From an uncultured Anaerolineales bacterium (lineage in GTDB: Bacteria > Chloroflexota > Anaerolineae > UBA2200): a DNA stretch of 64,000 nt. This document shows, piece after piece, positions 4,095 to 27,067 of the stretch. Both the position numbers and the translations under genes were made by a program. The stretch is taken from assembly GCA_964478075.1 (NCBI GenBank), contig CAYZGO010000007.1, positions 22,975 to 86,974 on the forward strand, in the 5' to 3' direction. Numbering within the stretch: the stretch's first letter is position 1; each line of letters begins with the position of its first letter. The notes beneath the pieces are model-generated. The model ran no database searches and was not told where the DNA came from. It saw only the letters and a list, made by a program, of their open reading frames with translations.

Positions 4095-6011
4095 ATGACT
4101 CAGGGAAAGCAACAGCTGATCGTCAAGGCGGACTGGGTCTACGCGGTCATCCTAACCGTGCTGGCCGCCATTCCCCGTCTCTGCTGCCTGAACCTGGCCG
4201 AGTTCAAGCTGGACGAGGCCACCCACTACCAGATGGCCTATTATCTTACGCGCGGTGACTGGCGCTGGGTCGGCTCCACAGCATCAATGGGTTTCCCCAA
4301 GCCGCCGCTTTTCGTCTACACACTGGCCCTGCCCATGCAGTTAAGCCACGACCCGCGTGTCGTCACTGGCTTTCTGGGCGTACTGGCAGCGTTAGCGACG
4401 GGCGGCTTCTACTTGATTCTGCGTCGCTTCCTAGGCAAGGGTGCTGCCTTCGGTGCCGCCTTACTCTTTGCCCTGAACCCACAAGCCATACTACACGCCC
4501 GCAAGCTCTTCACGGCAGACCTGATTCCCCCCCTGTGCACGCTATTCCTGGGTGCGGCGGTGGCATTCCTGGAGAGTTCCCCAAAGCGGATTCGGCGGTT
4601 TGCGATGCTGACAGCGTTCACCTTTGGCCTGCTGCTGCTGAACACATTCTCCCCCGTCCTGCTGTTCCCCGCTGTAGGCCTGCTCTTTTGGCAACGACGC
4701 CAGGATCTCAAAGTGCTTGATTGTATGGGAGCGATGGTTGCTTTCAGCTTACCCTTCGTGCCCTACCTCATCCAGGTAGCACCACTTATTCGCAACGCCA
4801 TTGCCAGCACCGGTGGTTCACCCACAAGCCGCCCACCCTTGCTAACATGGATCTGGAGCCTGCTGTATGGAGGCCCGTGGCCCTCGAATGCGTTCAGCAT
4901 AGCCGGTATTACGGCGATAACCATTGGCCTACTTTCACTAGGAGGAATAGCGTGGCTCCTGAATGCAGCACGCAAGCGGGAGACCAGAGCCTGGGCGGCC
5001 TTTTTCCTGGCCTGGTTAGGTCTGGCGCCACTAGTGGCCCTCGTCGTCCCGATTGGAGTCAGACTGCACTACCTGGTTATCCTCTACCCACTGCTGTTCG
5101 TGCTGCCTGGTGCGGGCGTGGAACTGGCGTTCCGCCGGGCAAGATGGCTGGGCTGGAGTGCACTGGCTCTTCTGATCGTGGCCACCGGCTGGCAAGCACA
5201 GATTTGGGTCAACAGCCTGACAGACGTGAGCCGGGGCGTCGAAGGCTATGGCACCCCATTGGGCTACTGGTGGCGTGCGACCGAGCAAGCCCGGGACTTT
5301 GCCGCAGAGCACGAGGCAGCCGAGGTGCTGCTGCTGATGCCAGGAGACCAGCCCTGGGACGAAAAAGCGCACGTCTTAGATGCATTGCTGAGCGATACGC
5401 CGCACCGTGTGATCAACGGACATACCACTGTCCTGTACCCGCCACATACGGCCGTGCTCCTCATTGCCTCCGAAGTGGAAGACGCGATGGCGTTTATCGT
5501 CCCCTGTACTCAGAATCTGGGCAGCCCCCTGAAGGCATCCCCCTTTGGAGGGGCCTACCACTACCGTCTGTGGCCCTCGGATACGTCCGCAGCATCCGCG
5601 TGTACGGCGGGGCTGCAACCGGCATCCGCGCGGTGGGCCTCGGGCGCCCGGCTCCTGGGATACAGCGTGAAAGGGCGCCCCCAACCGGGGGAAACGCTTC
5701 ACGTCATTCTCTACTGGGAAACGACGCAAGGCCCCCTCGGTGAAGACATCCACTGGTTCAATCACCTGCTGGATCAAGAGGAGCGCAAGTGGGGGCAGTT
5801 TGACACTGTAGGCTGGCCCGCTGTGCGCTGGCGGCCCGGAGACCGGGTGATGACCTACTTTGACATCACTATTAGCCCTGAGGCGGAGCCTGGTCCCTAC
5901 CTGCTGCGCGTGGGACAGTACACCTATCCATACCTTGAAAATATCCCGGTCGTAGATGCGGCCGGGAATCCAGTAGATTATGCTGCGGAACTCCCCCTCC
6001 CGACGCCGTAA
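4095..6011 (+). CDS. GT-C fold membrane glycosyltransferase (GT39/ArnT/PMT-like) with a C-terminal soluble domain
   Basis: 638 aa. Multi-TM N-terminal half with the loop-1 acidic motif KLDEATHYQMAYY typical of polyprenyl-phosphate-sugar-dependent GT-C enzymes. Confidence 0.65.
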   Translation: MTQGKQQLIVKADWVYAVILTVLAAIPRLCCLNLAEFKLDEATHYQMAYYLTRGDWRWVGSTASMGFPKPPLFVYTLALPMQLSHDPRVVTGFLGVLAALATGGFYLILRRFLGKGAAFGAALLFALNPQAILHARKLFTADLIPPLCTLFLGAAVAFLESSPKRIRRFAMLTAFTFGLLLLNTFSPVLLFPAVGLLFWQRRQDLKVLDCMGAMVAFSLPFVPYLIQVAPLIRNAIASTGGSPTSRPPLLTWIWSLLYGGPWPSNAFSIAGITAITIGLLSLGGIAWLLNAARKRETRAWAAFFLAWLGLAPLVALVVPIGVRLHYLVILYPLLFVLPGAGVELAFRRARWLGWSALALLIVATGWQAQIWVNSLTDVSRGVEGYGTPLGYWWRATEQARDFAAEHEAAEVLLLMPGDQPWDEKAHVLDALLSDTPHRVINGHTTVLYPPHTAVLLIASEVEDAMAFIVPCTQNLGSPLKASPFGGAYHYRLWPSDTSAASACTAGLQPASARWASGARLLGYSVKGRPQPGETLHVILYWETTQGPLGEDIHWFNHLLDQEERKWGQFDTVGWPAVRWRPGDRVMTYFDITISPEAEPGPYLLRVGQYTYPYLENIPVVDAAGNPVDYAAELPLPTP

Positions 6012-6317
6012 GCAATGAGTGCGCTGTTCAGGGCTTTTCCAGAGGCTGGTTATATTCATCGTGTTCAGCGGCAGTTGCACTGCCGCGGCTCCTGGCGATG
6101 CTACGCCGCTGGTGCAAAGGCCGTGTAGACAACCCCGCAGTGCAACTGCGGGGGAACGTGGGGAAGTCGGCTGACTTTGGAAAGCCCTAGTCTGCTGTTA
6201 CGGACGCTTGGAGTTGTATGGACATTTTGATACAATTCTGGTTCAGACGGCGTATAGCCAAGTCCGACCTCGGACAGGATCACACTGCTGGTGAGGGATT
6301 GAGAAAGGAGTTGGAAG

Positions 6318-6833
6318 ATGAGTGAGGAGACAAAAGAAGGCATGGCTGGGGAAGCAAAGGGTCAGGATGCTCAGACCCAAAAGTCGAGTCAGGAGGAATG
6401 GGCGAACATTGGGCAGCGCATCGAGGCTCAAATAAAACGGGACTTTGCCATGTGGGCGGGCGCAGAAGGGAGCGATAGCTGGGAGGTCATCGGCCGCAAA
6501 TCGGAGGCGAAAATCCGGAGCAAGATGGCCGGCGGCTTGGGCGCTGCCCCTGACGCGAGTTGGGAAGAAATTGGGCGCACAATGGAACAGAAGGTCAGAG
6601 CCGAAATAGCCGGTGGCGTCGGTGCGGAGGAAGGAGCAGAATGGGATGAGATTGGGCGGCGCGTCGAATTCCAGGTCAAGACAGGGCTCGGCAAGTGGGC
6701 TGGTGCCTCTCCCGAAGACGATTGGGCAACCGTCGGTGACAAGATCGGAGCCAAGATCCAGAGAATCCTGGACGATGTCCTGAAGACGGAGAAGAAACCC
6801 GAGGGGACGCAGGGGGCTCCCGAAAGCCCTTGA
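6318..6833 (+). CDS. Small acidic repeat protein of unknown function, with five repeats of about 27 aa each starting W-x-x-I/V-G
   Basis: Strong RBS AAAGGAG 8 nt upstream of the ATG. The protein contains WANIGQRIEAQIKRD, WEVIGRKSEAKIRSK, WEEIGRTMEQKVRAE, WDEIGRRVEFQVKTG and WATVGDKIGAKIQRI. Confidence 0.6.
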   Translation: MSEETKEGMAGEAKGQDAQTQKSSQEEWANIGQRIEAQIKRDFAMWAGAEGSDSWEVIGRKSEAKIRSKMAGGLGAAPDASWEEIGRTMEQKVRAEIAGGVGAEEGAEWDEIGRRVEFQVKTGLGKWAGASPEDDWATVGDKIGAKIQRILDDVLKTEKKPEGTQGAPESP

Positions 6834-6859
6834 GCCCAGGGTGACGAGAGCTAGTGGTC

Positions 6860-7340
6860 TGTCAGTGTTGAAGCAATTGCTTCGTAGTACATTGTTACCT
6901 TAGTTCCGGTAACCTGTCATTCTGAGCTGCGCCATGGCGCATTCGCACCACTCGTTGTGCAAGAAACGGTGATGTGTCATTGCCTTTGGTCCTGGGCTAC
7001 CTTTGTCCCTGGGTCTTTGTCCCTGGGGCCAAAGACCCAGGGGAAGACCCAGGGGAAGACCCAGGGCGAGCGCAGCGAAGCAATCTCCCTCTCACCGACA
7101 GGTGCAGATTGCTTCGTCGCTACGCTCCTCGCAATGACACCACCCGCCCTTGTTTCTTAGTGGCGACCGGAGGGAGCGAAGAATCTCTATTACGTGATAC
7201 AAACGATTTCCATTGAGTAATCGGAGATTCCCTTCGGCCCGGCTCCCTTCGACTTTGCTCAGGGCAGGCAGGGCGGGCTTCGCCTTCGCTGAGCTCCGGC
7301 TCAGAATGACATAACCGTCGAAACTTCGGTAACGCTGTAG
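6860..7340. repeat. Copy A of a structured intergenic repeat element with nested inverted repeats around a GAAGCAATCT...AGATTGCTTC hairpin core
   Basis: The outer inverted repeat is GTCATTCTGAGC (about 6915) paired with GCTCAGAATGAC (about 7300). The inner inverted repeat is GTGTCATTGC paired with GCAATGACAC. The core hairpin is CGAAGCAATCT-N19-AGATTGCTTCG. A tandem GGGGAAGACCCAG tract and a GAAGCAATTGCTTC palindrome (about 6871) are also present. The sequence recurs at 11296-11970 and, degenerate, at 20640-20950. Confidence 0.75.
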
Positions 7341-7453
7341 TGGTGGCGACTCTAGTCGCTCTTCCCGCCTGTTGGGTCACTGAAGTCGCTGCTACGAACC
7401 CTCAATTCAAGTGTGACGGAGCACTAGGTGTTTATCGCTTAGAACGCCAGGCC

Positions 7454-8338
7454 TCAGGTCGTCGCGCCGAGCAGGAACGGCGCGACGACCTGGTTCACCT
7501 GCTCAGCCTGACGCTCGAGCAGAGCGTGCTTCACTCCCTGAATACATGCGTAGCGCGCATTGGGCATGATCCGAATGGCTTCCCTGACTCTCGCTTCGCC
7601 CACCGTGGGGTCATGCTCACCAAAGATGATCAATGTCTCAGTTAGCACGCTGCTCAACAGTTGCTTGATGTTGATCTGCAGCAGGCTGTGGATGACACCA
7701 AAGAAGACCCGTTCATCGTAGCCCTCAGAACTCCTCTCGAGCTCTCCAGCGATCATCCTGGTGTAGTTTCCATATCCTCCTAGCAGCCTGGTGACGTGCG
7801 TATAGAGCGCATTGTTATTGACAAACTTGGCTAGCTTGCGCGTCAATCTGCTGACGTTTATGACCGCATACAGCCCGCTCGCGGCTGTTCCTCGCCTTGT
7901 ACTGTAGGCTGCGAGGGGAGGCGCCACCGGGATGATCTTCCCCACACGATGCGGATAGTCAGCGGCGTACTTGAGAGCGACTAGAGCCCCTACGCACTTG
8001 CCCATGATGTCCACCTTTTCATAACCCATGGAGTCCTGTAACGCGTCTATAATGCTCAGGAACTGATCCACGTGAGTAATGGCCTGCCCAGTCACCTTGT
8101 TGTAAAAGCCTGGAATATCGAGCGTGATCACTTTGTAGCTGGCACTGGCCGGCAGAAAGTTGAGCAGCGACTTGGCATAGCGATGCGGTGTGTGGACGAG
8201 AAGCAGCGGCGAACCCTTGCCTGCGCTCTTAAAGTGCAACTCCTGACCAGCGATGGACAGCATGTGCTCTTCGACGGAGACTTGCCTGGACACAATATCA
8301 TTGCAAGGCCTACATATATCCGTATCTACGAGAGTCAC
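7454..8338 (-). CDS. Alpha/beta hydrolase fold protein whose nucleophile elbow carries Cys (G-K-C-V-G)
   Basis: 294 aa. HTPHRYAKS... then IMGKCVGALVALKYAADYP in the position of GxSxG. C-terminal conserved H (GVKHALL). Confidence 0.6.
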   Translation of the reverse strand: MTLVDTDICRPCNDIVSRQVSVEEHMLSIAGQELHFKSAGKGSPLLLVHTPHRYAKSLLNFLPASASYKVITLDIPGFYNKVTGQAITHVDQFLSIIDALQDSMGYEKVDIMGKCVGALVALKYAADYPHRVGKIIPVAPPLAAYSTRRGTAASGLYAVINVSRLTRKLAKFVNNNALYTHVTRLLGGYGNYTRMIAGELERSSEGYDERVFFGVIHSLLQINIKQLLSSVLTETLIIFGEHDPTVGEARVREAIRIMPNARYACIQGVKHALLERQAEQVNQVVAPFLLGATT

Positions 8339-8471
8339 CTCTTTAGTCCCTATCCGGGAGATAGCGGGCCATCCTCTGCGGAAAACCTCTTACTGAATGA
8401 AACACCACGTCCACACTTTCGTTGCTCCACAGCCGTAGCCCCATGAGTCTTTCAGAGCGGGCATATGTAAA

Positions 8472-8500
8472 CTTGCTAGTAGTGTTGGCCTCCAGTATAA
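8472..8500 (+). promoter_or_regulatory. Sigma70-like promoter TTGCTA-N17-TATAAT upstream of the thiolase gene
   Basis: TTGCTA at 8472-8477, 17-nt spacer, TATAAT at 8495-8500, about 100 nt upstream of the start at 8599. Confidence 0.5.
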
Positions 8501-8598
8501 TGCCTTGCAGGTGTTTCTCAAAACGCCATGACCCAGACACACGTCATGGTCCAATCACATGGTGGGCTGATTGCCCCCACCACCCACGGAGTTAGTCC

Positions 8599-9765
8599 AT
8601 GCGCGAAGCAGTCATTGTCGAGGCAGTTCGCACACCAACAGGCAAGCGCAACGGCCTGCTGCGAGAGTACCACCCGGTCGAACTTGGAGCGATTGTCTTA
8701 CGCGAACTCTTGGTGCGCACCGGGTTGCAAGCTCACCAGATTGACCAGGTTATCATGGGCTGCGTCGGTCAGGTAGGCGAGCAAGGCGCTAACGTAGCAC
8801 GCAACATACTGCTACAAGCCGGATTCCCTGCAAAAGTGCCGGGGACGACGGTAGACTTTCAATGCGGGTCAAGCCAACAGGCCGTGCACCTGGCCGCTTC
8901 CATTATCCAGACCGGAGTGGCCAACATCATCATCGCTGGAGGCGTGGAGAACATGAGCAGGGTGCCCATGGGCAGCCACTTCATGAACGGGCCAGGCACG
9001 CCTTTCACACCAGAAATCATGGAGCGCTACGACATTATCTCACAGGGCCTCTCCGCAGAAGTCATCGCCGAACGCTGGAAGGTCAGCCGAAGGGAACTGG
9101 ACGAAATCGGTTTCCGCAGCCACACGCTGGCCGCACGCGCAACCAAAGCCGGTTGGTTCAAGCGCGAGATCATACCGCTGCAAGCCACGCTGGAAGACGG
9201 CAGCCAGGTAACAGTGGACCGTGACGAAGGCATTCGCTATAACCCATCCCTGGAGAAGATGGCTAACCTGAAGCCAGCTTTCAAAGAAGACGGGGTCGTG
9301 ACTGCGGGGAACTCTAGCCAGATTTTGGATGGAGCGGCAGCTCTGCTGGTGATGGGTCGAGACACAGCTCAATCCCTGGGCCTGTCTCCTCGAATGCGCA
9401 TTGTGGCGCAGTACGTTGTGGGAGTGGATCCGCACAGCATGCTGACCGGCCCTATACCGGCCACGCGGCAGGTTCTGAAGAGAGCAGGCCTGACACTGGA
9501 ACAGATGGACCTTGTCGAAGTCAACGAGGCCTTTGCCTCCGTGGTGGCTGCGTGGCAGCGCGAGCTGCAGCCAGATATGGCACGGGTCAACGTGCAGGGA
9601 AGCGCCATTGCTCTCGGCCATCCGCTTGGCGCGACGGGAGCCAGGATCATGGTCACACTGATACACGCCCTCGAACGCACTGGCGGACGGTATGGCCTGC
9701 AGACCATGTGCTGCGGCGGCGGTCTGGGCACCGCAACCGTTCTGGAGCGAGAGGGCAGCGCCTGA
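8599..9765 (+). CDS. Acetyl-CoA C-acetyltransferase (thiolase)
   Basis: 388 aa. Thiolase N-terminal region with the active-site Cys region (FQCGSSQQA), C-terminal NVQGSAIALGHPLGATGAR and catalytic CCGGGLG. Confidence 0.85.
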   Translation: MREAVIVEAVRTPTGKRNGLLREYHPVELGAIVLRELLVRTGLQAHQIDQVIMGCVGQVGEQGANVARNILLQAGFPAKVPGTTVDFQCGSSQQAVHLAASIIQTGVANIIIAGGVENMSRVPMGSHFMNGPGTPFTPEIMERYDIISQGLSAEVIAERWKVSRRELDEIGFRSHTLAARATKAGWFKREIIPLQATLEDGSQVTVDRDEGIRYNPSLEKMANLKPAFKEDGVVTAGNSSQILDGAAALLVMGRDTAQSLGLSPRMRIVAQYVVGVDPHSMLTGPIPATRQVLKRAGLTLEQMDLVEVNEAFASVVAAWQRELQPDMARVNVQGSAIALGHPLGATGARIMVTLIHALERTGGRYGLQTMCCGGGLGTATVLEREGSA

Positions 9766-15459: not shown

Positions 15460-18400
15460 CTACTGTGCCGTCTTCTTTCGTACTAACGCCAGCAGGTCCG
15501 CCCCATATTTCTCCAGCGTGCGCTTACCTATGCCCTTGATAGCGAGCAACTCGCGTTCGGTACGAGGGCACAGTGCGGCAATGCGTTGCAGCACCGAATC
15601 GTGCGCAATCACGAAGGCTGGCATACTTGCCGCACGGGCCGTCTCTCGCCGCCAGGTACGCAGTCGTTGGAACACCTCGTCATCATCGGCAACGGGTGGA
15701 GCGTCCTCTGATGCGTCTACGCTCTTCTTTTTCCGGCGCGAGGTCGTCTTTCGCTGCGCTGGTGGTCTGGCCGCAGGCTTGGGAGCCAGTGCGTGCAACA
15801 CAGCAGGCTTGCGCAGCGCCTGGTGACCAGCGGAGGTGAGTTCAAGCATCACGCCGCCATGCTCCAGTCGGCGTGTGCGCAGCAGCCTGGCCGTGAGCAG
15901 ACGCTCCAGCATGCGCTTGATCGCCGCGTCGGAGCGAAAGGCCAGCGCCCCGAAAGCAGGCTGTTGGTGCGAAGACTCTGGCGCTTCCGGATGCCCGCGC
16001 AAGATACGTATCAGATTGCCCCGCCCCCAGCCATGGGACGCTGCCAGGCAATGCAGGATAGTCTGGAACTGCTCCCATTCGTCTGGCAGGCCGTGATCCA
16101 GGGGCAGCGGGGCCAGATCCAGACAATTGTCGCAGGCAGTGCATTGTGTGATAGTCCGTCCGCCGAGGTAGGCGCTGATGTGTCCGTGGCGACAGCGCTG
16201 CGTCTTGGCGTAGGCCACGATTTCGGCTACGCGCTGGCCTTGCACCTTCTCGTACTGTTCCAGCAAAACGCTGAGCCGCTCGTGAGCGTCTTCGGGAGGT
16301 GGCAGCACTTCCAGCAGAGGATCGCGCCCCGAAGATCGGCACTCTAACCAGCCAGCATCGGCCCAGGCCAGCAGGCGGCGCTCCAGAATCCTTACATCCA
16401 GATGTGCCTGGCGTCCCACCTCGAACAGATCCAGCCCCAGTGGCTGGCCGGGCCGCAGACGGGCGGCGTGGCAGAACGCTGCCAACTCTGGCTCATCATT
16501 CGGTAGGGCGCTTGTCAGGCGCACGGTTGTCCTTCGCGGCGCATCTTGCCAGCGCCGCAAGAGGCCTACTTGCTGCAGCAAACTGATTGCTACCCGCACC
16601 GGTGTCTCTTCGGCCTGCACGTCGCGCCGCAGGTCGTCAATGGCCACGCGACCAGGCGATGCCCCGTGCAAGTGCCGTTTCACAGAAGCGTAGACCTGAC
16701 GAAGAAAGTCCTCTGGCAGCGCATCTTGCCGTGCGTGCCTGGTAAGAGTGGCCCGATCTGATGAGGCGTACATCAGCACACAGCGGGCAGGCAGTCCATC
16801 GCGCCCGGCACGTCCCGCCTCTTGGTAGTACGACTCTAACGAAGGCGGTGGCACAAAATGCACAATGAAGCGGATATCGGGTTTGTCAATACCCAGGCCA
16901 AAGGCAACGGTGGCCACGATAACACGCACGCGGCCGCTCATAAATTCGTCCTGTACAGCAGCCCGGTTAGGGACGCCAGCGTGGTAGTGGGTTGCGGAGA
17001 TTCCCTGACTGCGCAGCAAAGCTGCCAGTTCCTCGCATCGCACGCGGGTACCAGCATAGACAATCCCTCCGCCAGGCTCACTGCGGCAGAAGGCCAGCAG
17101 GTAGCGCAATTTGTGGTCACTGTTACGCGCGATAAAGACCTCCAGACGCAGGTTGGGCCGCAGCACATCGCCCGCGATGACACGCATATCTCCCATGCGG
17201 CGGATGATGTCACGACGCACTCTGGGCGCGGCAGTGGCTGTCATGGCCAGAAGGGGAGGATTGCCCAACGCCTGGCGAGCTTCAGCGATGTACAGATAAT
17301 CAGGCCGAAAATCGTGGCCCCACATGCTGACGCAGTGCACTTCATCAATCACCAGGCGATTCACGCCAGCACAGCGCAAAGCGTGCAAGAACAATGGCTG
17401 GCGCAGCCGCTCCGGAGCAGCGTAGACCAGCCGGTAGCCGCCAGCTCTGATCCTGCGCAAGCGGCGACATAGTTCGTCACCTCTCAGGGTAGAGTTGATC
17501 GTCGTCGCCAGCCGGCTTGCCTGAGACGGCAGTTTGTCCACTTGATCTTTCATCAAGGCGATAAGTGGAGAGATGACGAGTGTTGTCCCTGATTCGGCCA
17601 ACAGTGCTGGCAGTTGGTAGCACAGCGATTTGCCGCCGCCGGTAGGTAGCACCGCTAACACGTCCTCCCCGCGCATAGCACAGGCCATGATCTCAGCCTG
17701 GCCAGGCAAAAAGTCCTCATGGCCAAAAAAGCGCCTGGCAGCAGCCAGCAGTTGGGCCCTCTCTTGCGACGAGACCGAAACGGTCTCGAAGGAGTCGAGC
17801 GGTTTGGCGGGGGCCTTTGCTCGCTGCGCCACTTGGATTGGCTCTGGCTCTACCTGCCCTGGTAAGTGACGTCCAAACTCAGTCGCTATCGCTTCCTGAA
17901 GGTCGGCCAACTCTGCAGCGTAACGCGTTGCCAGTTCCGTCTCGATGTCGGCAGCGCGGTTTGTCTCTCCGCTGGCCTCAAAATAGGCGTGCAGCCGCCG
18001 TAGGTGGGTCACTGCCAAGGGCTTCTCCGCAGCCGCCGCTTCCTGCAAGCGCACGGCATAGGCGCTGGCGGCTACCCAGTTGCCCTGAACCTGGTGGATG
18101 GCCATCGTACCCAGAAGGTAAGCGCGGCTGTCCGGGCGTATCTCGTTCAGGCGGCGGTATGCGGCGCGGGCGGCTGCGTGATCACCCGCTGCCAATTGAA
18201 CTTCGCCAAGCAGACTCCAGGGCGCAGCTTTGTCTCCTGCTTCTGTAACCAGTGTCCGTGCGATCTCCAGTGCAGCCTGTACGTCATGCCGCGCCAGATG
18301 GATGCGTGCGACGAATGCTTGAGATGACATGGAGGTTCTCAACTGATGCCGTTTGCGCATCGTGTCCAACGCAGCGTCTGGCAAGCCCTCGTTAAGGAAC

Positions 18401-18591
18401 ATCCGTGCCTGCACGTCCAGTAACGAGACCAGACTTGGATTGGCCGGAAGCAGCTCGTCCAGAGAGGCGGCAAGGGCCGCATGGTGCTTCCAGCGCAGAA
18501 GAAAGTACACCAGATGGCTGCGTAGGCGGCCTGGCAACTGCAGCGTTTGTCCTGGAGTCAGGCCGAGTTCGAGCAGAACATCAGCGGGCAT
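15460..18591 (-). CDS. recQ: RecQ-family DNA helicase with an N-terminal helical/TPR-like extension of about 270 aa
   Basis: 1043 aa. Helicase motifs LPTGGGKSLCYQLPALL, DEVHCVSMWGHDFRPDY and the RecQ Zn-binding Cys cluster (CRHGH...CTACDNC). C-terminal HRDC domain (DEVFQRLRTWRRETA...IKGIGKRTLEKYG). Residues 1-270 are helical repeats with no helicase motifs. Confidence 0.85.
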   Translation of the reverse strand: MPADVLLELGLTPGQTLQLPGRLRSHLVYFLLRWKHHAALAASLDELLPANPSLVSLLDVQARMFLNEGLPDAALDTMRKRHQLRTSMSSQAFVARIHLARHDVQAALEIARTLVTEAGDKAAPWSLLGEVQLAAGDHAAARAAYRRLNEIRPDSRAYLLGTMAIHQVQGNWVAASAYAVRLQEAAAAEKPLAVTHLRRLHAYFEASGETNRAADIETELATRYAAELADLQEAIATEFGRHLPGQVEPEPIQVAQRAKAPAKPLDSFETVSVSSQERAQLLAAARRFFGHEDFLPGQAEIMACAMRGEDVLAVLPTGGGKSLCYQLPALLAESGTTLVISPLIALMKDQVDKLPSQASRLATTINSTLRGDELCRRLRRIRAGGYRLVYAAPERLRQPLFLHALRCAGVNRLVIDEVHCVSMWGHDFRPDYLYIAEARQALGNPPLLAMTATAAPRVRRDIIRRMGDMRVIAGDVLRPNLRLEVFIARNSDHKLRYLLAFCRSEPGGGIVYAGTRVRCEELAALLRSQGISATHYHAGVPNRAAVQDEFMSGRVRVIVATVAFGLGIDKPDIRFIVHFVPPPSLESYYQEAGRAGRDGLPARCVLMYASSDRATLTRHARQDALPEDFLRQVYASVKRHLHGASPGRVAIDDLRRDVQAEETPVRVAISLLQQVGLLRRWQDAPRRTTVRLTSALPNDEPELAAFCHAARLRPGQPLGLDLFEVGRQAHLDVRILERRLLAWADAGWLECRSSGRDPLLEVLPPPEDAHERLSVLLEQYEKVQGQRVAEIVAYAKTQRCRHGHISAYLGGRTITQCTACDNCLDLAPLPLDHGLPDEWEQFQTILHCLAASHGWGRGNLIRILRGHPEAPESSHQQPAFGALAFRSDAAIKRMLERLLTARLLRTRRLEHGGVMLELTSAGHQALRKPAVLHALAPKPAARPPAQRKTTSRRKKKSVDASEDAPPVADDDEVFQRLRTWRRETARAASMPAFVIAHDSVLQRIAALCPRTERELLAIKGIGKRTLEKYGADLLALVRKKTAQ

Positions 18592-18615
18592 CGCGGTTCC
18601 TCCTTGGGTAGTACT

Positions 18616-19341
18616 TCACAGATTGTCATAATCCACAGCCACCTCATAGTCTGGCACGACGTGTACACCGACTATCAGCGGCCAATATCGGCCCCGGTAT
18701 CTACGGCCCAGGCCCAGCGCCAGGTATATGTCCGTGGCTTGCAAACGGGCGGCCAATTCAGAGCCGTCGAGCACCAGTTCGCTTCCAGATGCGGCTAACC
18801 AAGCGCGTCCCAGAGCACGCCACTTGATGTCAGTCACGGGGACACCTCGTGCGGAGTTGGCACGCTTGAGTCGCAGGTCGCCCAATCTGAAGCCTATGCG
18901 TGCTTCGTACTTGCCGGAGTAAGGGTCTATTGAAAACAGCGCGTGCACTTCATCGGGGCGGACCAGGCAAAGTGAGCGACTGTGGTGGATAAGCACGTCC
19001 TCTGGGGCACGATCGAGGTGGGTGGCAAAGAAACGGGCGCGCCGCTCGCCTTCCAGGCGGCGCAACAGGCGGGGGCGTTGGTAGATGAAATCGGTGAGCC
19101 AGTCCTCTGTATGCGGCGGGTCAGGGCGGGGCTTCTTGAGGTCCAACGCCACCACGTCGCTGCACTCCACGACGCGCCCCGTCTGGTCGGTCATGTCGCC
19201 CAAGAGCACTGTGTCGTGCTCCTTGACTGGACGCACCCAGCGCAGGCCCGTGGTCGCATCTGGCTGTCGAGTGAATCCGGCCGTGCAAATGCCACTTTGC
19301 ATGCGGGTCATGGCTAGAATCAGGACTTCCTCTGTAGGCAT
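18616..19341 (-). CDS. Hypothetical protein (about 242 aa from the RBS-supported start; the ORF extends to 19428), cotranscribed with recQ
   Basis: RBS GGGAGA before the ATG (MPTEEVLILAMTRMQSGICTAGF...). A 24-nt gap separates it from recQ. No motif I can name. Confidence 0.5.
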   Translation of the reverse strand: MPTEEVLILAMTRMQSGICTAGFTRQPDATTGLRWVRPVKEHDTVLLGDMTDQTGRVVECSDVVALDLKKPRPDPPHTEDWLTDFIYQRPRLLRRLEGERRARFFATHLDRAPEDVLIHHSRSLCLVRPDEVHALFSIDPYSGKYEARIGFRLGDLRLKRANSARGVPVTDIKWRALGRAWLAASGSELVLDGSELAARLQATDIYLALGLGRRYRGRYWPLIVGVHVVPDYEVAVDYDNL

Positions 19342-19447
19342 GGCGCTCTCCCATAAGCACCCAACCTCCCGCAGGTTCAGTTTGCGGTAGAGAATCAGGC
19401 AACTTTGTTGGCCAGCCTCTCGACCCAAACCAACGTGCGGGAGGGTT

Positions 19448-19888
19448 TCACAAGTGTACTACAACTAATTCCGCTATGTGAGCGGCCCAGAACTCGGCCA
19501 CAAGACGGCGGTGGCACTGTTCAGGCGTGGCTTCGTAGCACAGCAGGCAGGGGGCACGGTAACGGGCCAGGATATCGCGCCCCACAGCTTCAGCTTGACG
19601 TTCGGCCAGCAACTCCGTGAAACGGGCTACATAACCCGGCCAATCATGATCCTCACTGTAGGTATCCAGAATCTCAGGTGTGGGTGCCAGTTCCGGGTGA
19701 TGCTCGTAAGCGATAGCAAAACCTTGGCGCAGCAGGAAGGCCAGGTCATCGCGCTTGGTATAGCCGGCCAGGTGAGAGGTGTTGCGCAAGCGGACGTCAA
19801 TGACGGCGTCCACTCCCGCTTTCTGCAGCAGACTGATGAACTCCGCCAGAGGACGGCGTTCGTAGCCAATGGTGTATAATGTAGGCAT
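19448..19888 (-). CDS. DUF488 (YeaO-like) family protein
   Basis: MPTLYTIGYERRPLAEFISLLQKAGVDAVIDVRLRNTSH...GFAIAYEHHPELAP fits the DUF488 N-terminal signature. 146 aa. Confidence 0.7.
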   Translation of the reverse strand: MPTLYTIGYERRPLAEFISLLQKAGVDAVIDVRLRNTSHLAGYTKRDDLAFLLRQGFAIAYEHHPELAPTPEILDTYSEDHDWPGYVARFTELLAERQAEAVGRDILARYRAPCLLCYEATPEQCHRRLVAEFWAAHIAELVVVHL

Positions 19889-19898
19889 GGGCGTCTCC

Positions 19899-20495
19899 CT
19901 AGAGGGGAAGAGTGAGCTGCTGCGCTTCCGGTTTCGCTTCAGTCACTGTCCCATTGGGACGGATGTGAAACACACGGGCTCCGCGTTCCAGCAGAGTCGG
20001 TGTGATGAGCTTGGTGCGGTGACATTTGCGATAGTCACCCTCGCTGCACATCATGGCTACGCGCTCTGACTCGGCCAGTTTGAGGAGCCGTTCGATGCCA
20101 GTCTGATAGGCCGGAGTTTGCGCCAGGCGTTCATAGTTGGGATGCTCCTGACCTGCATCGTAGAGCGCAGGATCAGCAGGCCGCCCGCCGAGGGAATCAC
20201 CCGTGAAGACGTAGCGTATGCCAGCAGCCTCAAGGTCACGACGCAGGCTCTCGCGGTTGAACTGTGGTGCCCACTGACTATACGGCTGGCTGCGCACGTC
20301 CACGACGACGGTGATCCTCTGTCGGCGCAGCAGATCTAGGAAGGCTTCGATTGTGTGATCGCTGTGGCCGATGGAACATATCTGCACGCGGCCTATCGCT
20401 GACTCTTCTGTGATCACGTCCGTGCTCATCGCATTTCCAGCCTCTGGCGCACTCAGTCGTGAACGCATTCTAGCCTGAAAGCGTGCAACCTGCAA
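19899..20495 (-). CDS. DUF488 family protein (second paralog; N-terminal start uncertain)
   Basis: VQICSIGHSDHTIEAFLDLLRRQRITVVVDVRSQPYS...GIRYVFTGDSLGG matches the DUF488 core. A 10-nt gap separates it from the downstream paralog. Confidence 0.65.
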   Translation of the reverse strand: MQVARFQARMRSRLSAPEAGNAMSTDVITEESAIGRVQICSIGHSDHTIEAFLDLLRRQRITVVVDVRSQPYSQWAPQFNRESLRRDLEAAGIRYVFTGDSLGGRPADPALYDAGQEHPNYERLAQTPAYQTGIERLLKLAESERVAMMCSEGDYRKCHRTKLITPTLLERGARVFHIRPNGTVTEAKPEAQQLTLPL

Positions 20496-21128: not shown

Positions 21129-21785
21129 ATGGACTTTGGGAAAGCATTTACTTACCTTTTTGATGACGAGGAGTGGGTCACCAAGCTGCTTATTGGGGGC
21201 ATTGTGGCCTTTATCCCTATTGTCAACCTGGCCGTCATTGGCTACGCGGTTAAGGTGCTGAAGAACGTTGCAGATGGTGTGGAACGCCCCCTACCCGCGT
21301 GGAGTGATTTCGGGGATTTCTTTGTGAAGGGGCTCATAGGCTTCCTAGGAGCCCTGCTCTGGGCCCTCCCCATAATTGTCGTGAGCGGCCTGAGCATGAT
21401 GCTCAGCTTTGCACTATACGACACGAGCGCTGAATACGGCGGTCTGCTTGATGTCTGCCTTTGGGGGCTGAACTGTCTGTCGGGGCTTTATGGCTTGTTC
21501 CTGGCCATAGTGCTGCCTGCGGCCTTTGCCAACTATGCTATCAGCAACGAGTTTGGGGCCCTGTTCCGCTTCGGCCAGATAGTCAAGTACATCACATCCA
21601 ACCTGGGTAACTATGTCATCGCTATTCTGCTTGGCTGGGTTGCTCAATTCATTGCTGGTTTCGGTGTGATCTTGTGCCTCATTGGAGTGATCTTTACACA
21701 ATTCTGGGCCAGCCTCGTCAACGCCCACCTCTTGGGTCAAGTATGCCGTCTTAGTGAGATACCAAGCCCGGAGCCAGCAGCCTGA
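21129..21785 (+). CDS. DUF4013 family membrane protein
   Basis: MDFGKAFTYLFDDEEWVTKLLIGGIVAFIPIVNL... with 4-5 TM helices matches the DUF4013 N-terminal signature. Confidence 0.65.
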   Translation: MDFGKAFTYLFDDEEWVTKLLIGGIVAFIPIVNLAVIGYAVKVLKNVADGVERPLPAWSDFGDFFVKGLIGFLGALLWALPIIVVSGLSMMLSFALYDTSAEYGGLLDVCLWGLNCLSGLYGLFLAIVLPAAFANYAISNEFGALFRFGQIVKYITSNLGNYVIAILLGWVAQFIAGFGVILCLIGVIFTQFWASLVNAHLLGQVCRLSEIPSPEPAA

Positions 21786-22446: not shown

Positions 22447-22521
22447 GCGGGGTGTGGCGCAGCCTGGTAGCGCGCAGCGTTTGGGACGCTGAAGTCGGAG
22501 GTTCAAGTCCTCTCACCCCGA
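22447..22521 (+). tRNA. tRNA-Pro (anticodon TGG)
   Basis: Cloverleaf folded by hand: acceptor CGGGGTG/CACCCCG, D-arm GCGC-AGCCTGGTA-GCGC, anticodon stem CAGCG/CGCTG with loop TTTGGGA, T-arm GGAGG-TTCAAGT-CCTCT. No encoded CCA. Confidence 0.8.
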
Positions 22522-22562
22522 CAGCAATAGCGGTCGAGCATTTGTGACCGCAGCCTGTGTTT

Positions 22563-22635
22563 GCGGGTGTAGCTCAGTTGGCAGAGCTCCTGCCTTCCAA
22601 GCAGGTTGTCACGGGTTCGAGTCCCGTCGCCCGCT
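22563..22635 (+). tRNA. tRNA-Gly (anticodon TCC)
   Basis: Acceptor GCGGGTG/CGCCCGC, D-arm GCTC-AGTTGGCA-GAGC, anticodon stem CCTGC/GCAGG with loop CTTCCAA, T-arm ACGGG-TTCGAGT-CCCGT. Confidence 0.8.
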
Positions 22636-22703
22636 CCTACTATGTGGAATACGCCTCCAGGCAAGATGCCAGAGCAGGTTGTGGTGGTGAACCCCCAACG
22701 TGC

Positions 22704-24860
22704 TCATGCCCCCTTTGCTCGGCCTCGCCGCAGAAGTTCGTCCGGCACATTCGCCAGGAAGCAGGAGGGCTGGCCCTGAGAGTAGCTCAGATAGAGCAGG
22801 TCTCGAGCACGGGTCATGGCCACGTACAAGCGTCTCCGTTCTCGATCCAGGTAGTCTTCCAGCTCCTCGTTCTGCAATGTAGGGTTATCCCTGGGCACAT
22901 ATAGGCCATCTGTTACACCAAGTACAAACACTACTGTGAATGTCAGCCCTTTTGCGCTGTCAAAGGTGCCATATTTAACAGCGCTCCCCCAATATGAGCT
23001 TGTCGCCTTCTGCAGATCGGACAACTCCACGTGGGGCGACAAGTAGAGTTTGATGAGGTCTGCATAGGGTCGCTGCCAGCGGTAGATGAGGGCAAAATCA
23101 GAATCTGCATACCCTCGCTCTTTCTTCAGGCGAGCGATTTCGCTCATAACCCAACATACTTCGGCGTATGGGGTAGCAAAGCCGTGCAGCCTTGGCACAT
23201 CACCACGCCGCTCGGAGAACTCTGGTTCGGGAGCTTCTCCGTCTGCATCGTCCATGTTGTCGAGACGCACACCCGCCACCATAGCATGCGCCGCGCGCAG
23301 GATTTCCCGCGTATTGCGAAAGCTCTGGGACAGCAGGGCGCCCCGCCCAATGATGTCAATACCCAGCGACTTTAGCGCATAGCCACCGGGATAGATACGC
23401 TGCAGCCCATCCCCGACGAGAAAAAGGTCGTTTGGCCCCGGGGGAACAATCCGACGGATCAGGTGCATGGCGGCCTGGGTCAAGTCTTGGATTTCATCCA
23501 CCACAGCAGCTACGTATGGTACTGGCAGCAGTTCAGGCCGGAACAACCGCAAGGTTTCCAGCACGAAATCGCCATAATCCCACAACCCCCGGCGTTTCAG
23601 ATCTGTCTGATACGCCTTGTACACCGCGTAGACAGCACGACGGTGCGCGTCCCGTAGGGGAGTGCCGCGGCCGCTGCGATCCAGAGCCAAGTACTCGTCT
23701 ATGGTCCGTACGTCTCGTCCCTTAATAGCGTAGCTGATCTCCGAGTAGAAGAACGACCATGGACGAGCCCAAAGGCTCAATCCGGGATAGTGTGGGACGA
23801 TCTGGAAGATCGCATGCTGCACAGCCTGCTGGACAGCCTCCTTGTCCACCACAGGATTCTTGCCTTGACTCACCAGGAAGCGATAGCACCACTGAGCCAC
23901 ACCACTACAATCCACAGCCTCGAGTTCAGGAGCCCCTTCGCCAGCCAGACCTTGCAGCTGATGCCAGGCGACGCCCGCCAGGCGATCGTCGTACGTCAGG
24001 AAAAGGACTTTGCCCCCCGTTTTCAGCGCCTGACGGGCCAGGTTGCGAGCACGGTGAATGGCTACCACGGTCTTGCCGGAACCCACGACCCCTTTCACAC
24101 GGGCTGGGCCGCTGTACGAGCGGGTGGCCAAGGCACGTTGGCGAGGGGTGAGAAAGAGCATCCACTCCTCCATGTTTCCGGCCAAGGCCCGCTGAAACTC
24201 GTCGCCATTGATGAACCGATGTAGATGATAGCCCCCTTGGTGGTGCTCCAGTCTCTGCTGCAGCTGTTTGTCCGGCACGGTCGGCTTTTCCACAACACTC
24301 AGCGCGATTTCCAGTAACTGACCGTACGCTTCGCCAGACAAGAGGCGTTTTACCCATGTTAGCTGCTTGGGATTATCCAGTAGACGCACATTGGGCAGCA
24401 CATACTCTGGTACACCGATGTCCAGCAACTGTTCATCACTATAGTCCGCGAAAAGCGTCCTCGGTTCCCCTTGCACGCCGCGAAGCCGACCGACCAGTCC
24501 GCGCTTCCCTTCCACGGGCTTGGCGCTCACGTGGAGCAGGTCCACCACTTTGACCATGCCGTCCTGAAGTCTGAAGCTCGTTCGCGCTGCGCGCCGGTAC
24601 GCCTCAACCTGCCGATCCACCAGGCACAGCACCATGTCGTAGGGCTCGATGTGCTTCCAGATCAGGCAGTAGGACTCATCCACACGACATGAATAGACTG
24701 CGCGCTCTGCTTGAGGCACCTTCTCGCAATGCAACCCATCAGCCCAGGGATTGTCGAGCATCTGTTCAACGGTGCGCACCAGACTCGTGGAGACAGCAGG
24801 CGGCAATTTGCCCAGGTCTCGCAAGGAATCACGGGTCATGGTCGGTTTCCAGGATTCCAT
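22704..24860 (-). CDS. SF1 (UvrD/PcrA-like) helicase with an N-terminal RelE/ParE-toxin-like domain
   Basis: 718 aa. The N-terminal region (about residues 15-90), LRDLGKLPP...AVYSCRVDESYCLIWKHIEPYDMVLCLVDRQVEAY, has the RelE/ParE pattern (yRvg-dYRiiY...v.vl.v.hR..vY). The helicase core has Walker A GVVGSGKT, DEIQD, VGDGLQRIY, LSQSFRNT, FDSAKGLTFTVVFVLG and LYVAMTRARDLLYL. Confidence 0.8.
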   Translation of the reverse strand: MESWKPTMTRDSLRDLGKLPPAVSTSLVRTVEQMLDNPWADGLHCEKVPQAERAVYSCRVDESYCLIWKHIEPYDMVLCLVDRQVEAYRRAARTSFRLQDGMVKVVDLLHVSAKPVEGKRGLVGRLRGVQGEPRTLFADYSDEQLLDIGVPEYVLPNVRLLDNPKQLTWVKRLLSGEAYGQLLEIALSVVEKPTVPDKQLQQRLEHHQGGYHLHRFINGDEFQRALAGNMEEWMLFLTPRQRALATRSYSGPARVKGVVGSGKTVVAIHRARNLARQALKTGGKVLFLTYDDRLAGVAWHQLQGLAGEGAPELEAVDCSGVAQWCYRFLVSQGKNPVVDKEAVQQAVQHAIFQIVPHYPGLSLWARPWSFFYSEISYAIKGRDVRTIDEYLALDRSGRGTPLRDAHRRAVYAVYKAYQTDLKRRGLWDYGDFVLETLRLFRPELLPVPYVAAVVDEIQDLTQAAMHLIRRIVPPGPNDLFLVGDGLQRIYPGGYALKSLGIDIIGRGALLSQSFRNTREILRAAHAMVAGVRLDNMDDADGEAPEPEFSERRGDVPRLHGFATPYAEVCWVMSEIARLKKERGYADSDFALIYRWQRPYADLIKLYLSPHVELSDLQKATSSYWGSAVKYGTFDSAKGLTFTVVFVLGVTDGLYVPRDNPTLQNEELEDYLDRERRRLYVAMTRARDLLYLSYSQGQPSCFLANVPDELLRRGRAKGA

Positions 24861-25340: not shown

Positions 25341-25970
25341 ATGATCCAGGCCATTTCAATCAGGAAAGCGGTGCTGCATGCTTGGGCGTGTCTCACTCAG
25401 CTCTTGGTCACGTCACACGTAGACTGGAGTGCGAAGGGACCAGGACGTCAGGAGAGGCGAGACGTGGAAGTCTGGTACGCACTGCATACCAAACCACGCA
25501 AAGAGTACCAGGTGCGTGATCTCCTGGAGAGCCGGGGAATGGAGACGTATCTGCCGGTGCTCAAGGTGACCTGTAAAGGACATCTGCGAAAGAGACGCGA
25601 AAAACCTTTCTTCGCTCGCTATCTCTTTGCGCGCATGGACCTCACCAGCGTGCCGCTCTCCTCCCTAAACTGGGCTCCCGGTGTGACCCGCGTGGTCAGT
25701 TTCGGTGGCCAGCCAGCCGTGGTGCAGGATGAGATACTGCAGTGGCTGAAAGACCGGCTGGCGCGGATAGACTCGAGAGATTACCACCAGGGGCTGCCCC
25801 TTCGGCGCGGTGACCGGCTGCGGGTGAAGACCGGGCCGCTGAAGGACATGGAGGTCATCTTCGAGCGGCCACTGTCTTCAGAAGATCGAGCGCAGGTGCT
25901 CATCGAAATGTTGGGTCGCCTCACCGCCTGCCAGATTGATCTACATTGCCTCGAACGGATGGAAAGATAG
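25341..25970 (+). CDS. NusG-paralog transcription antiterminator-like protein (UpxY/LoaP/TaA-type; NGN plus KOW domains). The start may be the GTG near 25453.
   Basis: NGN domain VEVWYALHTKPRKEYQVRDLLESRGMETYLPV...KPFFARYLFARMDL. KOW motif LRRGDRLRVKTGPLKDMEVIFER. It sits at the head of a co-directional polysaccharide cluster rather than in a secE-nusG-rplK context. Confidence 0.75.
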   Translation: MIQAISIRKAVLHAWACLTQLLVTSHVDWSAKGPGRQERRDVEVWYALHTKPRKEYQVRDLLESRGMETYLPVLKVTCKGHLRKRREKPFFARYLFARMDLTSVPLSSLNWAPGVTRVVSFGGQPAVVQDEILQWLKDRLARIDSRDYHQGLPLRRGDRLRVKTGPLKDMEVIFERPLSSEDRAQVLIEMLGRLTACQIDLHCLERMER

Positions 25971-26302
25971 CAGGCCGGGCTGCCACGCCCGGCTGTCCGG
26001 CGGCGTGCCCACTCCGCTTCACGCCGTGGATGCTGCGCGAGCAGCCGCCTCTGCTGACCTTTCGTAGAAGCTCGTGGGCAGTTGAAGGACGCTAACAGCC
26101 GCCCTCTCGCAGATGGGCGGACATACGGCGGGTTGCTTCGATTGGGTCTTTGTTGGGGGCAAACGTGACCCAATGGCGGAGCGTGCCTGACTATCGTTCT
26201 GGTGCCACCTGAGAGAAGGTACCGGAACGGCGGAGCCTGCCTGGGCAACGTGAAGCGTGAAACGTGATGAGGGGCGGGTAGCGAGTGGCGAGGCGGGAGG
26301 AA

Positions 26303-27067
26303 ATGACACAGCCGGTGGGCCGAATGCGGGCCCCCGGCGGCACGTGGGGCAACCTGCGGCTGTACATGGAACGGCAGGCCGCGAGCCCGGCGCGCTACCT
26401 CCTCGAGCAACTCCTGTTCGCCCTTGTGGGCTGGATCCCCACGGTGCTGGGCATCGGACTCAGGGCGCTTGTGTATCGGCTGATCCTCCACATGGACGGA
26501 CTGGCAGCTATCGAGAACGGCGTGCGGCTGCGCTTTTGCAGCCACATCCGTCTGGGCCGCGGCGTGTACATAGACAATGGCGTCTATCTACATGCCTGCC
26601 TGGGCGGCATCGAAATCGGTGAAGGCACCTTTGTGATGCATCACGCCGAGCTCCACGTGTACAATTTCCGCAGCATCCCCCATTCGCACATTCGAATAGG
26701 TCGCAACTGCTTGATCAGCGAGTACAACGTCCTGCGCGGGCAGGGCGGCATCACGATTGGCGACAATGTCTACACCGCCCCTCTGGTGCAGATGCTGGCC
26801 GTTGACCACGTTTATGACGACCCGACGCGGCCCATCATCGAACAGGGGATCACGGCGAACGGGATTGTGATTGAGGACAATGCCTGGATCGGGGCCGGGG
26901 CCATCATCCTCGACGGGGTGCGGGTAGGGAAAGGGGCCGTGGTAGGAGCGGGGGCGGTCGTGACTGAGGATGTGCCACCACACACGGTGGTGGCAGGAGT
27001 TCCAGCCGAGGTGGTGGAACAGATTGAGGGCGCCCCTACATCGGCACGAGGGACGGTGTACTTCTGA
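26303..27067 (+). CDS. Hexapeptide-repeat (left-handed beta-helix) acetyltransferase
   Basis: Repeated [LIV]GxxxxI hexapeptides ([43 protein letters not shown]). RBS GGGAGGAA before the ATG at 26303. Confidence 0.75.

Follow-up and report, generated by a model that had tools for sequence, protein, structure and literature searches.

Background

RecQ-family helicases are known to work alongside proteins that carry OB folds. The interaction of RecQ with SSB is established and pairs the helicase with an OB-fold single-strand binder, and the eukaryotic RecQ-family helicases BLM and Sgs1 have dedicated OB-fold subunits, RMI1 and RMI2. Here, a four-gene cassette is described from the minus strand of a 64,000-nucleotide stretch of DNA of an uncultured Anaerolineales bacterium (GenBank assembly GCA_964478075.1, contig CAYZGO010000007.1, positions 22,975 to 86,974), which is referred to below as the window. 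The cassette consists of two paralogous DUF488 genes (DUF488-A and DUF488-B), a gene for a protein of the DuOB family and a gene for a RecQ-family helicase with an N-terminal extension.

DUF488 is an old and widespread family, and DuOB has been named from sequence analysis only; no experimental data on the function of either were found. Burroughs and Aravind are said to have placed DUF488 in the rhodanese-phosphatase superfamily and to have predicted a part in DNA-end processing, and conflict roles have reportedly been predicted for the enzymes of the DUF488 clade. The closest described system is PDC-M45, which belongs to the PDC set of the PADLOC resource, a collection of 145 untested candidates obtained from genes that are embedded in BREX, DISARM or type I restriction-modification (RM) systems (guilt-by-embedding; Payne et al. 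2024, bioRxiv 10.1101/2024.01.29.577857). PDC-M45 unites two DUF488 paralogues and a DuOB-type protein, and the corresponding three genes of the window are referred to here as the trio.

Conservation of the cassette in Chloroflexota

An alignment of DuOB proteins was scanned against one genome per species by pattern-based detection. The scan yielded 80 loci, all from metagenome-assembled genomes (MAGs) of uncultured organisms: 76 bear the label Chloroflexota or that of one of its subgroups (mostly Anaerolineae), three are labelled "uncultured bacterium" only and one is labelled Poribacteria. The DuOB proteins at these loci are 49-76% identical to that of the window. Six-frame open reading frames (ORFs) of the relatives were searched with the window proteins, and the order DUF488-A, DUF488-B, DuOB and RecQ with its extension was found on one strand almost everywhere. 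Sufficient flanking DNA is available on either side at 49 Anaerolineae loci, and at 45 of these the complete set of four genes is present with order and strand unchanged. The exceptions are L046, which lacks RecQ, and L014, L026 and L053, which lack the DUF488 genes but keep DuOB and RecQ; in L053 these two genes are 5 kb apart.

The conservation ends at the borders of the cassette. Window ORFs outside the four genes have relatives in at most 6 of the 80 loci, and no fifth conserved gene was found in the flanks, where no gene family occurs in more than 9 of the 80 loci. The identities of the four proteins to their window counterparts co-vary (Spearman rho 0.69-0.90), as expected for a cassette that is inherited as a unit. 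As a control, 74 loci anchored on ordinary recQ genes, which came from the metagenome scan with the fusion protein P0226 described below, were examined, and neither DuOB nor DUF488 was found within 6 kb at any of them. The recurrence of the four-gene arrangement is more than chance, and the linkage to recQ, which an earlier note on this DNA had allowed might be peculiar to one genome, turns out to be conserved.

Fusions of DuOB to RecQ

DuOB is fused to RecQ helicases in two unrelated lineages, and one of these fusions involves a different type of RecQ. In the protein P0127 (1047 amino acids), DuOB is joined to a RecQ that is orthologous to that of the window (40% identity over 793 aligned positions, including the insertion of 140 residues described below), and it stands where the TPR domain lies in the window RecQ. 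In P0226 (900 amino acids), a distant DuOB is joined to a canonical-type RecQ that gives a strong RQC match and has no such insertion. In both cases the fusion gene immediately follows a pair made up of one DUF488 and one DUF488-N3a gene. Scanning metagenomes with P0226 added six fusion loci of the same kind, half of which have the DUF488 pair upstream; among the other three, one contig ends too soon, and the 1.2-2.3 kb upstream of the fusion genes in L099 and L101 are without a DUF488 match. The P0226 clade would be archaeal, judged solely by the genes next to it, which encode a nuclease of the FEN1 type and a THUMP methyltransferase.

A further single ORF that spans DuOB and TPR-RecQ is found in L056 (1446-5339), where it represents either a genuine fusion or a sequencing error in the MAG. 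In the window, the DuOB and RecQ genes are in the same reading frame and are separated by one TGA and 24 nucleotides (18592-18618), so that losing or reading through that one stop would yield a DuOB-TPR-RecQ fusion.

Taken across lineages, what is conserved at the core is the trio, whereas RecQ joins DuOB recurrently and is obligatory in some lineages only. RecQ is regarded as an add-on because more distant DuOB genes usually keep the trio only. The first reading of this locus has to be corrected in this respect: the helicase is near-constant only within the Anaerolineae clade of the window and within the clades that have the fusions, and is a lineage-specific or fused addition to the conserved core.

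The DUF488 pair

Both paralogues match Pfam DUF488 (PF04343) above its cut-off of 22.2 bits, DUF488-A with 91.9 bits (E-value 5.9e-26) and DUF488-B with 77.6 bits (E-value 1.6e-21). By profile score, only DUF488-B (43.9 bits) is a member of the subfamily DUF488-N3a (PF22751, cut-off 27), while DUF488-A (19.2 bits) falls below the cut-off. The A-type motifs IGHS, DVRSxPxS, LGG and MCxEGD..CHR are kept in 69 orthologues and the B-type motifs TIGY, DVRLxNTSxLAG, LAP and LLCxE..CHR in 73. The family signature of D-x-R, C-x-E and C-H-R with a C-terminal His is present in both paralogue types, and residues D31, R33, Y61, P69, Y86, C117, E119, C125, H126, R127 and H145 are invariant in both types across lineages, as judged from 17 sequences at 9 loci. 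The two types are clearly distinct, yet always paired, and in L092 they are fused into one protein of 334 amino acids.

Because both paralogues keep the invariant residues in every lineage examined, both look functional and probably act as a heteromer, which the L092 fusion supports. Neither a sequence search with DUF488-B nor one with the DUF488 profile gave a significant match in the PDB. DUF488 had been introduced in the earlier note as a family without an assigned function; this is correct in that no function has been demonstrated, but a context exists, in that the second gene of the cassette falls into the curated DUF488-N3a subfamily and the trio matches PDC-M45, in part only for its A gene.

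The DuOB protein

The third gene had been thought to encode an unrecognisable protein. Its product aligns to positions 2-209 of the 210 positions of the Pfam profile DuOB (PF22557, dual OB-containing domain) with 63 bits against a cut-off of 27, and by this match it is a full-length member of a known family. This family is small, as a profile search of 1.84 billion cluster representatives recovered 401 relatives only. No DuOB relatives were found on plasmids and phages by tblastn or in IMG/VR by scanning.

An AlphaFold2 model based on 30 close homologues was poor (pLDDT 56.6) and was replaced by one based on a diverse alignment of 55 sequences. The second model is confident (pLDDT 95.7, pTM 0.92) and folds into two strand-rich halves. 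Compared with the PDB by Foldseek, this model has its top matches in RADX bound to single-stranded DNA (ssDNA), HIN-200 domains and CTC1; among viral models it matches baculovirus LEF-3, which is a single-strand-binding protein and the partner of the viral helicase. A sequence search of the PDB with the DuOB profile returned nothing significant.

The residues that are most conserved family-wide are C19, R37, E79, D80, S123 and D171, and H77 and H227 are invariant among closer relatives only. Conserved motifs include PPHxED, RSL and TDLxWRAxGR. For a passive single-strand binder, this set of residues is unexpectedly polar, and going by conservation it is more reminiscent of a catalytic site or a metal site than of the surface of a typical ssDNA-binding OB fold.

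The RecQ helicase

By its profile matches, the fourth gene encodes a RecQ-family helicase, but one outside the canonical bacterial RecQ equivalog. The product reaches 350.2 bits with TIGR00614 (recQ_fam, cut-off 219.8) and falls short of the E. coli-type equivalog cut-offs, with 488.8 against 640.2 for TIGR01389 and 400 against 1015 for NF008279. The helicase core is recognized by DEAD at residues 296-457 (93.8 bits) and Helicase_C at residues 495-599 (58.8 bits), and the helicase motifs GGGKS, DEVH, TATA and QEAGRAGRDG can be read in the translation. RecQ_Zn_bind matches residues 778-824 (32 bits, cut-off 25), where the alignment resumes at profile position 18, and the corresponding cluster of four cysteines (CRHG...C..C..C) is seen in the translation. 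RQC matches residues 840-929 just below its cut-off (22.1 against 23 bits), and HRDC matches residues 971-1037 with 76.7 bits against 23.8. No second recQ was found within the 64-kb window.

The match to the RecQ model begins at residue 286, which leaves about 275-285 extra residues at the N-terminus. A TPR-like nature of this extension, as proposed in the earlier note, agrees with a marginal TPR_19 match at residues 99-158 (26.7 bits, cut-off 25; five other TPR models stay below their cut-offs), with a match of the PEP-CTERM TPR model to residues 42-178 and with the NCBI name of the close homologue P0122, TPR protein. The extension lies in one ORF with the helicase core in about 70 loci, so it is not an annotation or sequencing artefact such as a missed start. 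It is the least conserved part of the protein, with a median identity of 48% against 71% for the core. A search with the N-terminal 275 residues alone returned 2 relatives, the candidate list having been swamped by repeat words. Two genes near distant DuOB genes were considered as relatives of the extension, namely that for a 615-residue protein after DuOB in L094 and that for a TPR protein beside L095, and neither product resembles it.

The helicase is also unusual in that about 140 residues (641-777), which give no Pfam match, are inserted after the second RecA-like domain and ahead of the zinc-binding motif. The insertion is common to the fusion P0127 and is absent from the canonical-type fusion P0226. 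The zinc-binding motif is likewise preceded by a long gap in the RecQ-like helicase that adjoins a solitary DuOB in L091.

Layout of the locus

The coordinates of the genes and protein regions are given in Table 1. In the ORF list of the window, the cassette appears as four consecutive minus-strand ORFs with maximal extents of 19899-20495, 19448-19888, 18616-19428 and 15460-18591. For DUF488-A, the ATG at 20429 is the most likely start, and the TTG at 20495 merely bounds the maximal ORF. The start of DuOB was placed at the ATG at 19341 because all 29 aligned homologues begin with MPxxEVLILAMT. With these refined starts the genes are separated by 10, 106 and 24 nucleotides, and each start is preceded by a purine-rich motif resembling a ribosome-binding site (GGAG, before DUF488-B, GGGAGAG and AAGGAGG).

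Table 1. Genes and protein regions of the DUF488/DUF488/DuOB/RecQ cassette, in window coordinates
Feature	Position	Strand	Remarks
DUF488 paralogue A	19899..20429	-	176 aa from ATG 20429; maximal ORF reaches TTG 20495
DUF488 paralogue B, subclade DUF488-N3a	19448..19888	-	146 aa; Pfam DUF488 and DUF488-N3a; PADLOC PDC-M45C
Spacer DUF488-B/DuOB, 106 nt	19342..19447	-	no gene here in the window
DuOB protein, 241 aa	18616..19341	-	Pfam DuOB; two tandem beta-barrels predicted
RecQ-family helicase, 1043 aa	15460..18591	-	fourth gene of the block
RecQ residues 1-275, TPR-like N-terminal extension	17767..18591	-	TPR_19 match
RecQ residues 276-640, superfamily 2 (SF2) helicase core, two RecA-like domains	16672..17766	-	DEAD and Helicase_C
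RecQ residues 641-777, insertion of ~140 aa	16261..16671	-	without family match
RecQ residues 778-1043, zinc-binding Cys cluster, RQC-like region, basic linker, HRDC, stop codon	15460..16260	-	

Genes on the plus strand bound the block on both sides, one for an MFS transporter that ends at 15195 and a DUF4013 gene that begins at 21129, and the block is therefore regarded as discrete. On its minus strand, no site resembling a promoter came up inside the block in a simple scan, terminator-like sites are no commoner there than in shuffled sequence, and no RNA element was found within the cassette in Rfam. The impression of a tight four-gene unit conveyed by the earlier note is thus borne out by the short gaps, the opposite-strand neighbours and the order kept in relatives, and the independent promoters that would have spoken against it are not apparent from the simple scan. 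The GC content of the cassette (0.60-0.61) equals that of its flanks. Its closest neighbours encode MFS transporters, DUF4013 and DUF2148 proteins, and the window genes scanned farther away are of metabolism and transport.

The spacer between DUF488-B and DuOB (19342-19447 in the window) is the site of small inserted genes in 12 loci (L008, L013, L015, L017, L024, L025, L032, L033, L039, L043, L074 and L080). These encode PDDEXK_3 proteins of the GxxExxY type, DUF3800, DUF6036 or NTP_transf_2 nucleotidyltransferases, or 23S_rRNA_IVP four-helix-bundle proteins.

Proposed mechanism and alternative explanations

The cassette would constitute a self-contained operon for a DNA-processing complex, in which a helicase has been added to the trio of DUF488-A, DUF488-B and DuOB. 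The RecQ-family helicase would unwind DNA in the 3'-to-5' direction from an end, a gap or a fork. DuOB, as a putative tandem-OB protein, would be its dedicated partner and would hold the exposed single strand or the DNA terminus; it may be recruited through the TPR-like N-terminal domain of the helicase here and is joined to the helicase by fusion in other lineages. The DUF488 heteromer would then chemically process a group at the DNA terminus, possibly a phosphate-linked one, as the reported placement in the rhodanese-phosphatase superfamily would suggest. It is tentatively preferred that such a complex of helicase, tandem-OB protein and DUF488 heteromer serves in the repair or processing of chromosomal DNA ends and does not represent a mobile defence island. 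The leaning towards repair is due to the ordinary GC content, the metabolic and transport neighbours, the occurrence of a trio in a nuo operon, the lack of copies found on plasmids, phages and viral contigs, the strong, correlated conservation of the four proteins and a RecQ architecture that is full but for a marginal RQC match. A bolder version, in which DuOB is the dedicated partner of a RecQ subfamily (docked onto the TPR-like domain or fused) and the DUF488-A/B heterodimer is a new DNA-terminus-modifying enzyme delivered by the helicase-OB machine, is rather unlikely. At the broader level, a role in DNA processing or defence, as supposed in the earlier note, is the reasonable reading given the conserved linkage to a modified RecQ.

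A number of observations weigh against the repair reading. In eight further distant DuOB contexts, DUF488-A, DUF488-B and DuOB are kept without RecQ in six, one of which has a permuted order, one the fused DUF488 proteins of L092 and one a position inside a nuo operon (L094); the remaining two are a DuOB gene at a contig end and a solitary DuOB gene beside a convergent, split RecQ-like helicase gene. Since most distant DuOB loci are without RecQ, the trio can work without a dedicated helicase. The fold matches of the DuOB model are all to multi-OB DNA binders, but they are weak (E-values of 0.002-0.07, TM-scores of 0.26-0.37), and for this reason it is chiefly membership in the Pfam family that supports the fold assignment. 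OB folds that bind ssDNA typically have aromatic and basic residues, which are absent from the top conserved residues of DuOB, and because the most conserved residues are acidic, His, Ser or Cys, DuOB itself could be catalytic. Since all 80 genome matches come from MAGs of uncultured organisms, the distribution of the cassette may be patchy, and it may not belong to the core genome. The genes in the spacer are selfish or toxin-antitoxin-like, and the one site has been struck repeatedly by different kinds of them. One DuOB is fused to a region with a weak HEPN match. In L088 (1721-5974), upstream of the archaeal-looking fusion cassette and in its orientation, there are genes for a HerA-like ATPase, a 535-residue protein without family match and a Dam-type MethyltransfD12 methyltransferase, which could be an adjacent defence system or further parts of the same system. 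PADLOC, finally, lists the trio as a defence candidate.

The close rival to chromosomal repair is anti-phage or anti-plasmid defence by a helicase-armed PDC-M45, in which DuOB would sense foreign DNA ends or single-stranded replication intermediates, RecQ would translocate along or unwind the invading DNA and the DUF488 pair would modify or block its termini. The evidence is split between the two, and defence is regarded as quite possible. PDC-M45B and PDC-M45C match strongly and PDC-M45A partly, and the PDC candidates derive from genes embedded in BREX, in DISARM or in RM systems of type I; PDC-M45 is, however, a prediction only. RecQ-like helicases are present in known defence systems, and the models of two of them, DpdF and PsyrT, match the window RecQ, but through a generic RecQ core, for which TIGR01389 scores 489 bits over the same region. 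Defence would also accord with the HEPN-like fusion of one DuOB, with the HerA-like ATPase and the type II methyltransferase that adjoin the L088 fusion locus and with a UvrD-like helicase 2 kb away in the window that matches GajB-type models; the cassette itself, however, is surrounded by transport genes and genes for unrelated DUF proteins, the wider window is metabolic, and a context such as the nuo operon does not constitute a defence island. In favour of defence, the cassette varies in its genomic position, and small genes of a selfish or toxin-antitoxin type lie inside it in 12 loci; against it, the cassette is not atypical in GC content, searches of plasmids, phages and viral contigs turned up no copies, and the high sequence conservation and correlated divergence resemble vertical descent.

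Two alternatives would detach the trio from DNA ends or from the helicase. In the first, the target of the DUF488 pair and DuOB would be RNA or a small molecule derived from a nucleotide and not DNA ends, with RecQ as a downstream effector or only co-regulated; in its favour, DUF488 is without a demonstrated substrate and most trios are without a helicase. A relative in the same clade, DUF4326, has been tied to ribose-phosphate or ADP-ribose chemistry (PMC9503650), an archaeal fusion of DUF488 with a helix-turn-helix domain has a ParB-type CTP-binding fold, and a ligand site or a catalytic site could be made up of the polar residues that are invariant in DuOB. This explanation is nevertheless improbable in view of the covalent DuOB-RecQ fusions, which tie DuOB to a DNA helicase in two lineages, of the HRDC and zinc/RQC modules, which bind DNA, and of the fold neighbours of DuOB, which are DNA binders. 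The other alternative holds that the gene order has been inherited without functional coupling and that RecQ is a housekeeping helicase placed beside an unrelated trio in one clade. The genome loci do come from one group, Chloroflexota and mostly Anaerolineae, and most of the distant trios have no RecQ. However, the four genes are conserved while their flanks are not, none of the 74 ordinary recQ loci has DuOB or DUF488, and independent DuOB-RecQ fusions exist elsewhere, one of them to a different RecQ type; this explanation is highly improbable and already largely refuted because of the fusions.

Other features of the window

About 2 kb upstream of the cassette, a gene on the minus strand (22704-24860) encodes a UvrD-like helicase of 718 amino acids and adjoins genes on the plus strand for tRNA-Pro (22448-22522) and tRNA-Gly (22563-22637). 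The protein matches the NERD+UvrD and GajB-type models of PADLOC, and about 230 residues precede its helicase domains; by eye, the first 100 residues have the look of a RelE/ParE-type toxin, and they give no Pfam match. The gene may be a separate defence-type gene.

The GC content of the window shifts markedly: it is 0.63-0.65 at 26-34 kb, then drops to 0.51-0.54 between 34 and 40 kb and lies at 0.52-0.57 between 44 and 54 kb, and from about 26 kb on the GC skew stays positive. Glycosyltransferase, radical SAM, epimerase and oxidoreductase genes lie in the high-GC block, and horizontal acquisition of a polysaccharide cluster may account for the low-GC blocks. A 638-residue ORF (4095-6011, plus strand) and a 254-residue ORF (25781-26545, minus strand) give no Pfam match at an E-value of 1e-5 or below. 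At the distant locus L094, the trio and the 615-residue protein, which is helical and has no family match, occupy positions 6025-9617 between the genes for the 51-kDa subunit and a molybdopterin-type subunit of the nuo operon.

Significance

The operon linkage and the independent fusions to RecQ provide a concrete hypothesis, testable at the bench, for two uncharacterised families, in which a helicase, a tandem-OB protein and a DUF488 heterodimer would form a complex that acts on DNA ends or ssDNA. If a repair role is true, Chloroflexi and some archaea would possess an accessory pathway centred on RecQ that is new; if a defence role is true, it would validate and extend a PADLOC candidate and add a helicase-armed variant to it. 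Should DUF488-A and DUF488-B prove to be a terminus-modifying enzyme that works with DuOB and RecQ, the DUF488 family, to which E. coli YeaO belongs, would thereby gain its first functional handle. A machine composed of DuOB, RecQ and the DUF488 pair would amount to a new RecQ-centred end-processing pathway.

Comparison with known systems

Among described systems, PDC-M45 is the most similar. PDC-M45B matches DUF488-A (E-value 5.4e-55), PDC-M45C matches DUF488-B (4.5e-43), and PDC-M45A matches DuOB partially (3.3e-10, over the first 86 of 230 model positions). The same three families, two DUF488 paralogues and a DuOB-type protein, adjoin on one strand, and the order and strand of the trio in the window are as in other DUF488/DUF488/DuOB trios. 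PDC-M45 as defined includes no helicase, whereas TPR-RecQ is the fourth conserved gene here, and the designation of PDC-M45 as a defence system is a prediction. No mention of PDC-M45 by name was found in the literature searched, and a search that did not take in Burroughs and Aravind (2023) found no publication that treats DUF488 and RecQ together. The trio is already catalogued, as Pfam families and as PDC-M45, and no description was found of the near-constant TPR-RecQ with its insertion, the independent DuOB-RecQ fusions and the swap of the TPR domain for DuOB. With respect to the Pfam families, the third gene encodes a full-length DuOB protein (PF22557) and the second a member of DUF488-N3a (PF22751), to which the product of the first gene does not belong; a function in DNA-end processing, as predicted for these families, would suit the connection with RecQ.

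The helicase shares with bacterial RecQ of the E. coli type (TIGR01389) the helicase core, the zinc-binding cluster and HRDC, and between the latter two it has a region with a marginal RQC match. It differs in remaining below the equivalog cut-off and in having an extra TPR-like domain of about 275 amino acids and an insertion of about 140 amino acids. Two PADLOC models match it at about residues 276-677, DpdF with an E-value of 1e-155 and PsyrT with 2.5e-107, and it was considered as a member of the Dpd 7-deazaguanine system or of PsyrTA. Both assignments were rejected because the matches reflect the shared RecQ core; TIGR01389 scores 489 bits on the same region, and no known Dpd or Psyr partner genes were found among the window neighbours scanned.

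In its proposed architecture, the system may be compared with the two pairings of RecQ helicases and OB-fold proteins mentioned at the outset. The comparison with BLM/Sgs1 and RMI1/RMI2 is an analogy only, drawn from the kind of partnership and not from a relationship of sequence or fold, and no topoisomerase gene is adjacent here. The comparison with RecQ and SSB likewise brings together a helicase and an OB-fold protein, with the difference that the OB partner here would be a dedicated tandem-OB protein, encoded in the same operon or fused to the helicase, rather than the general SSB.

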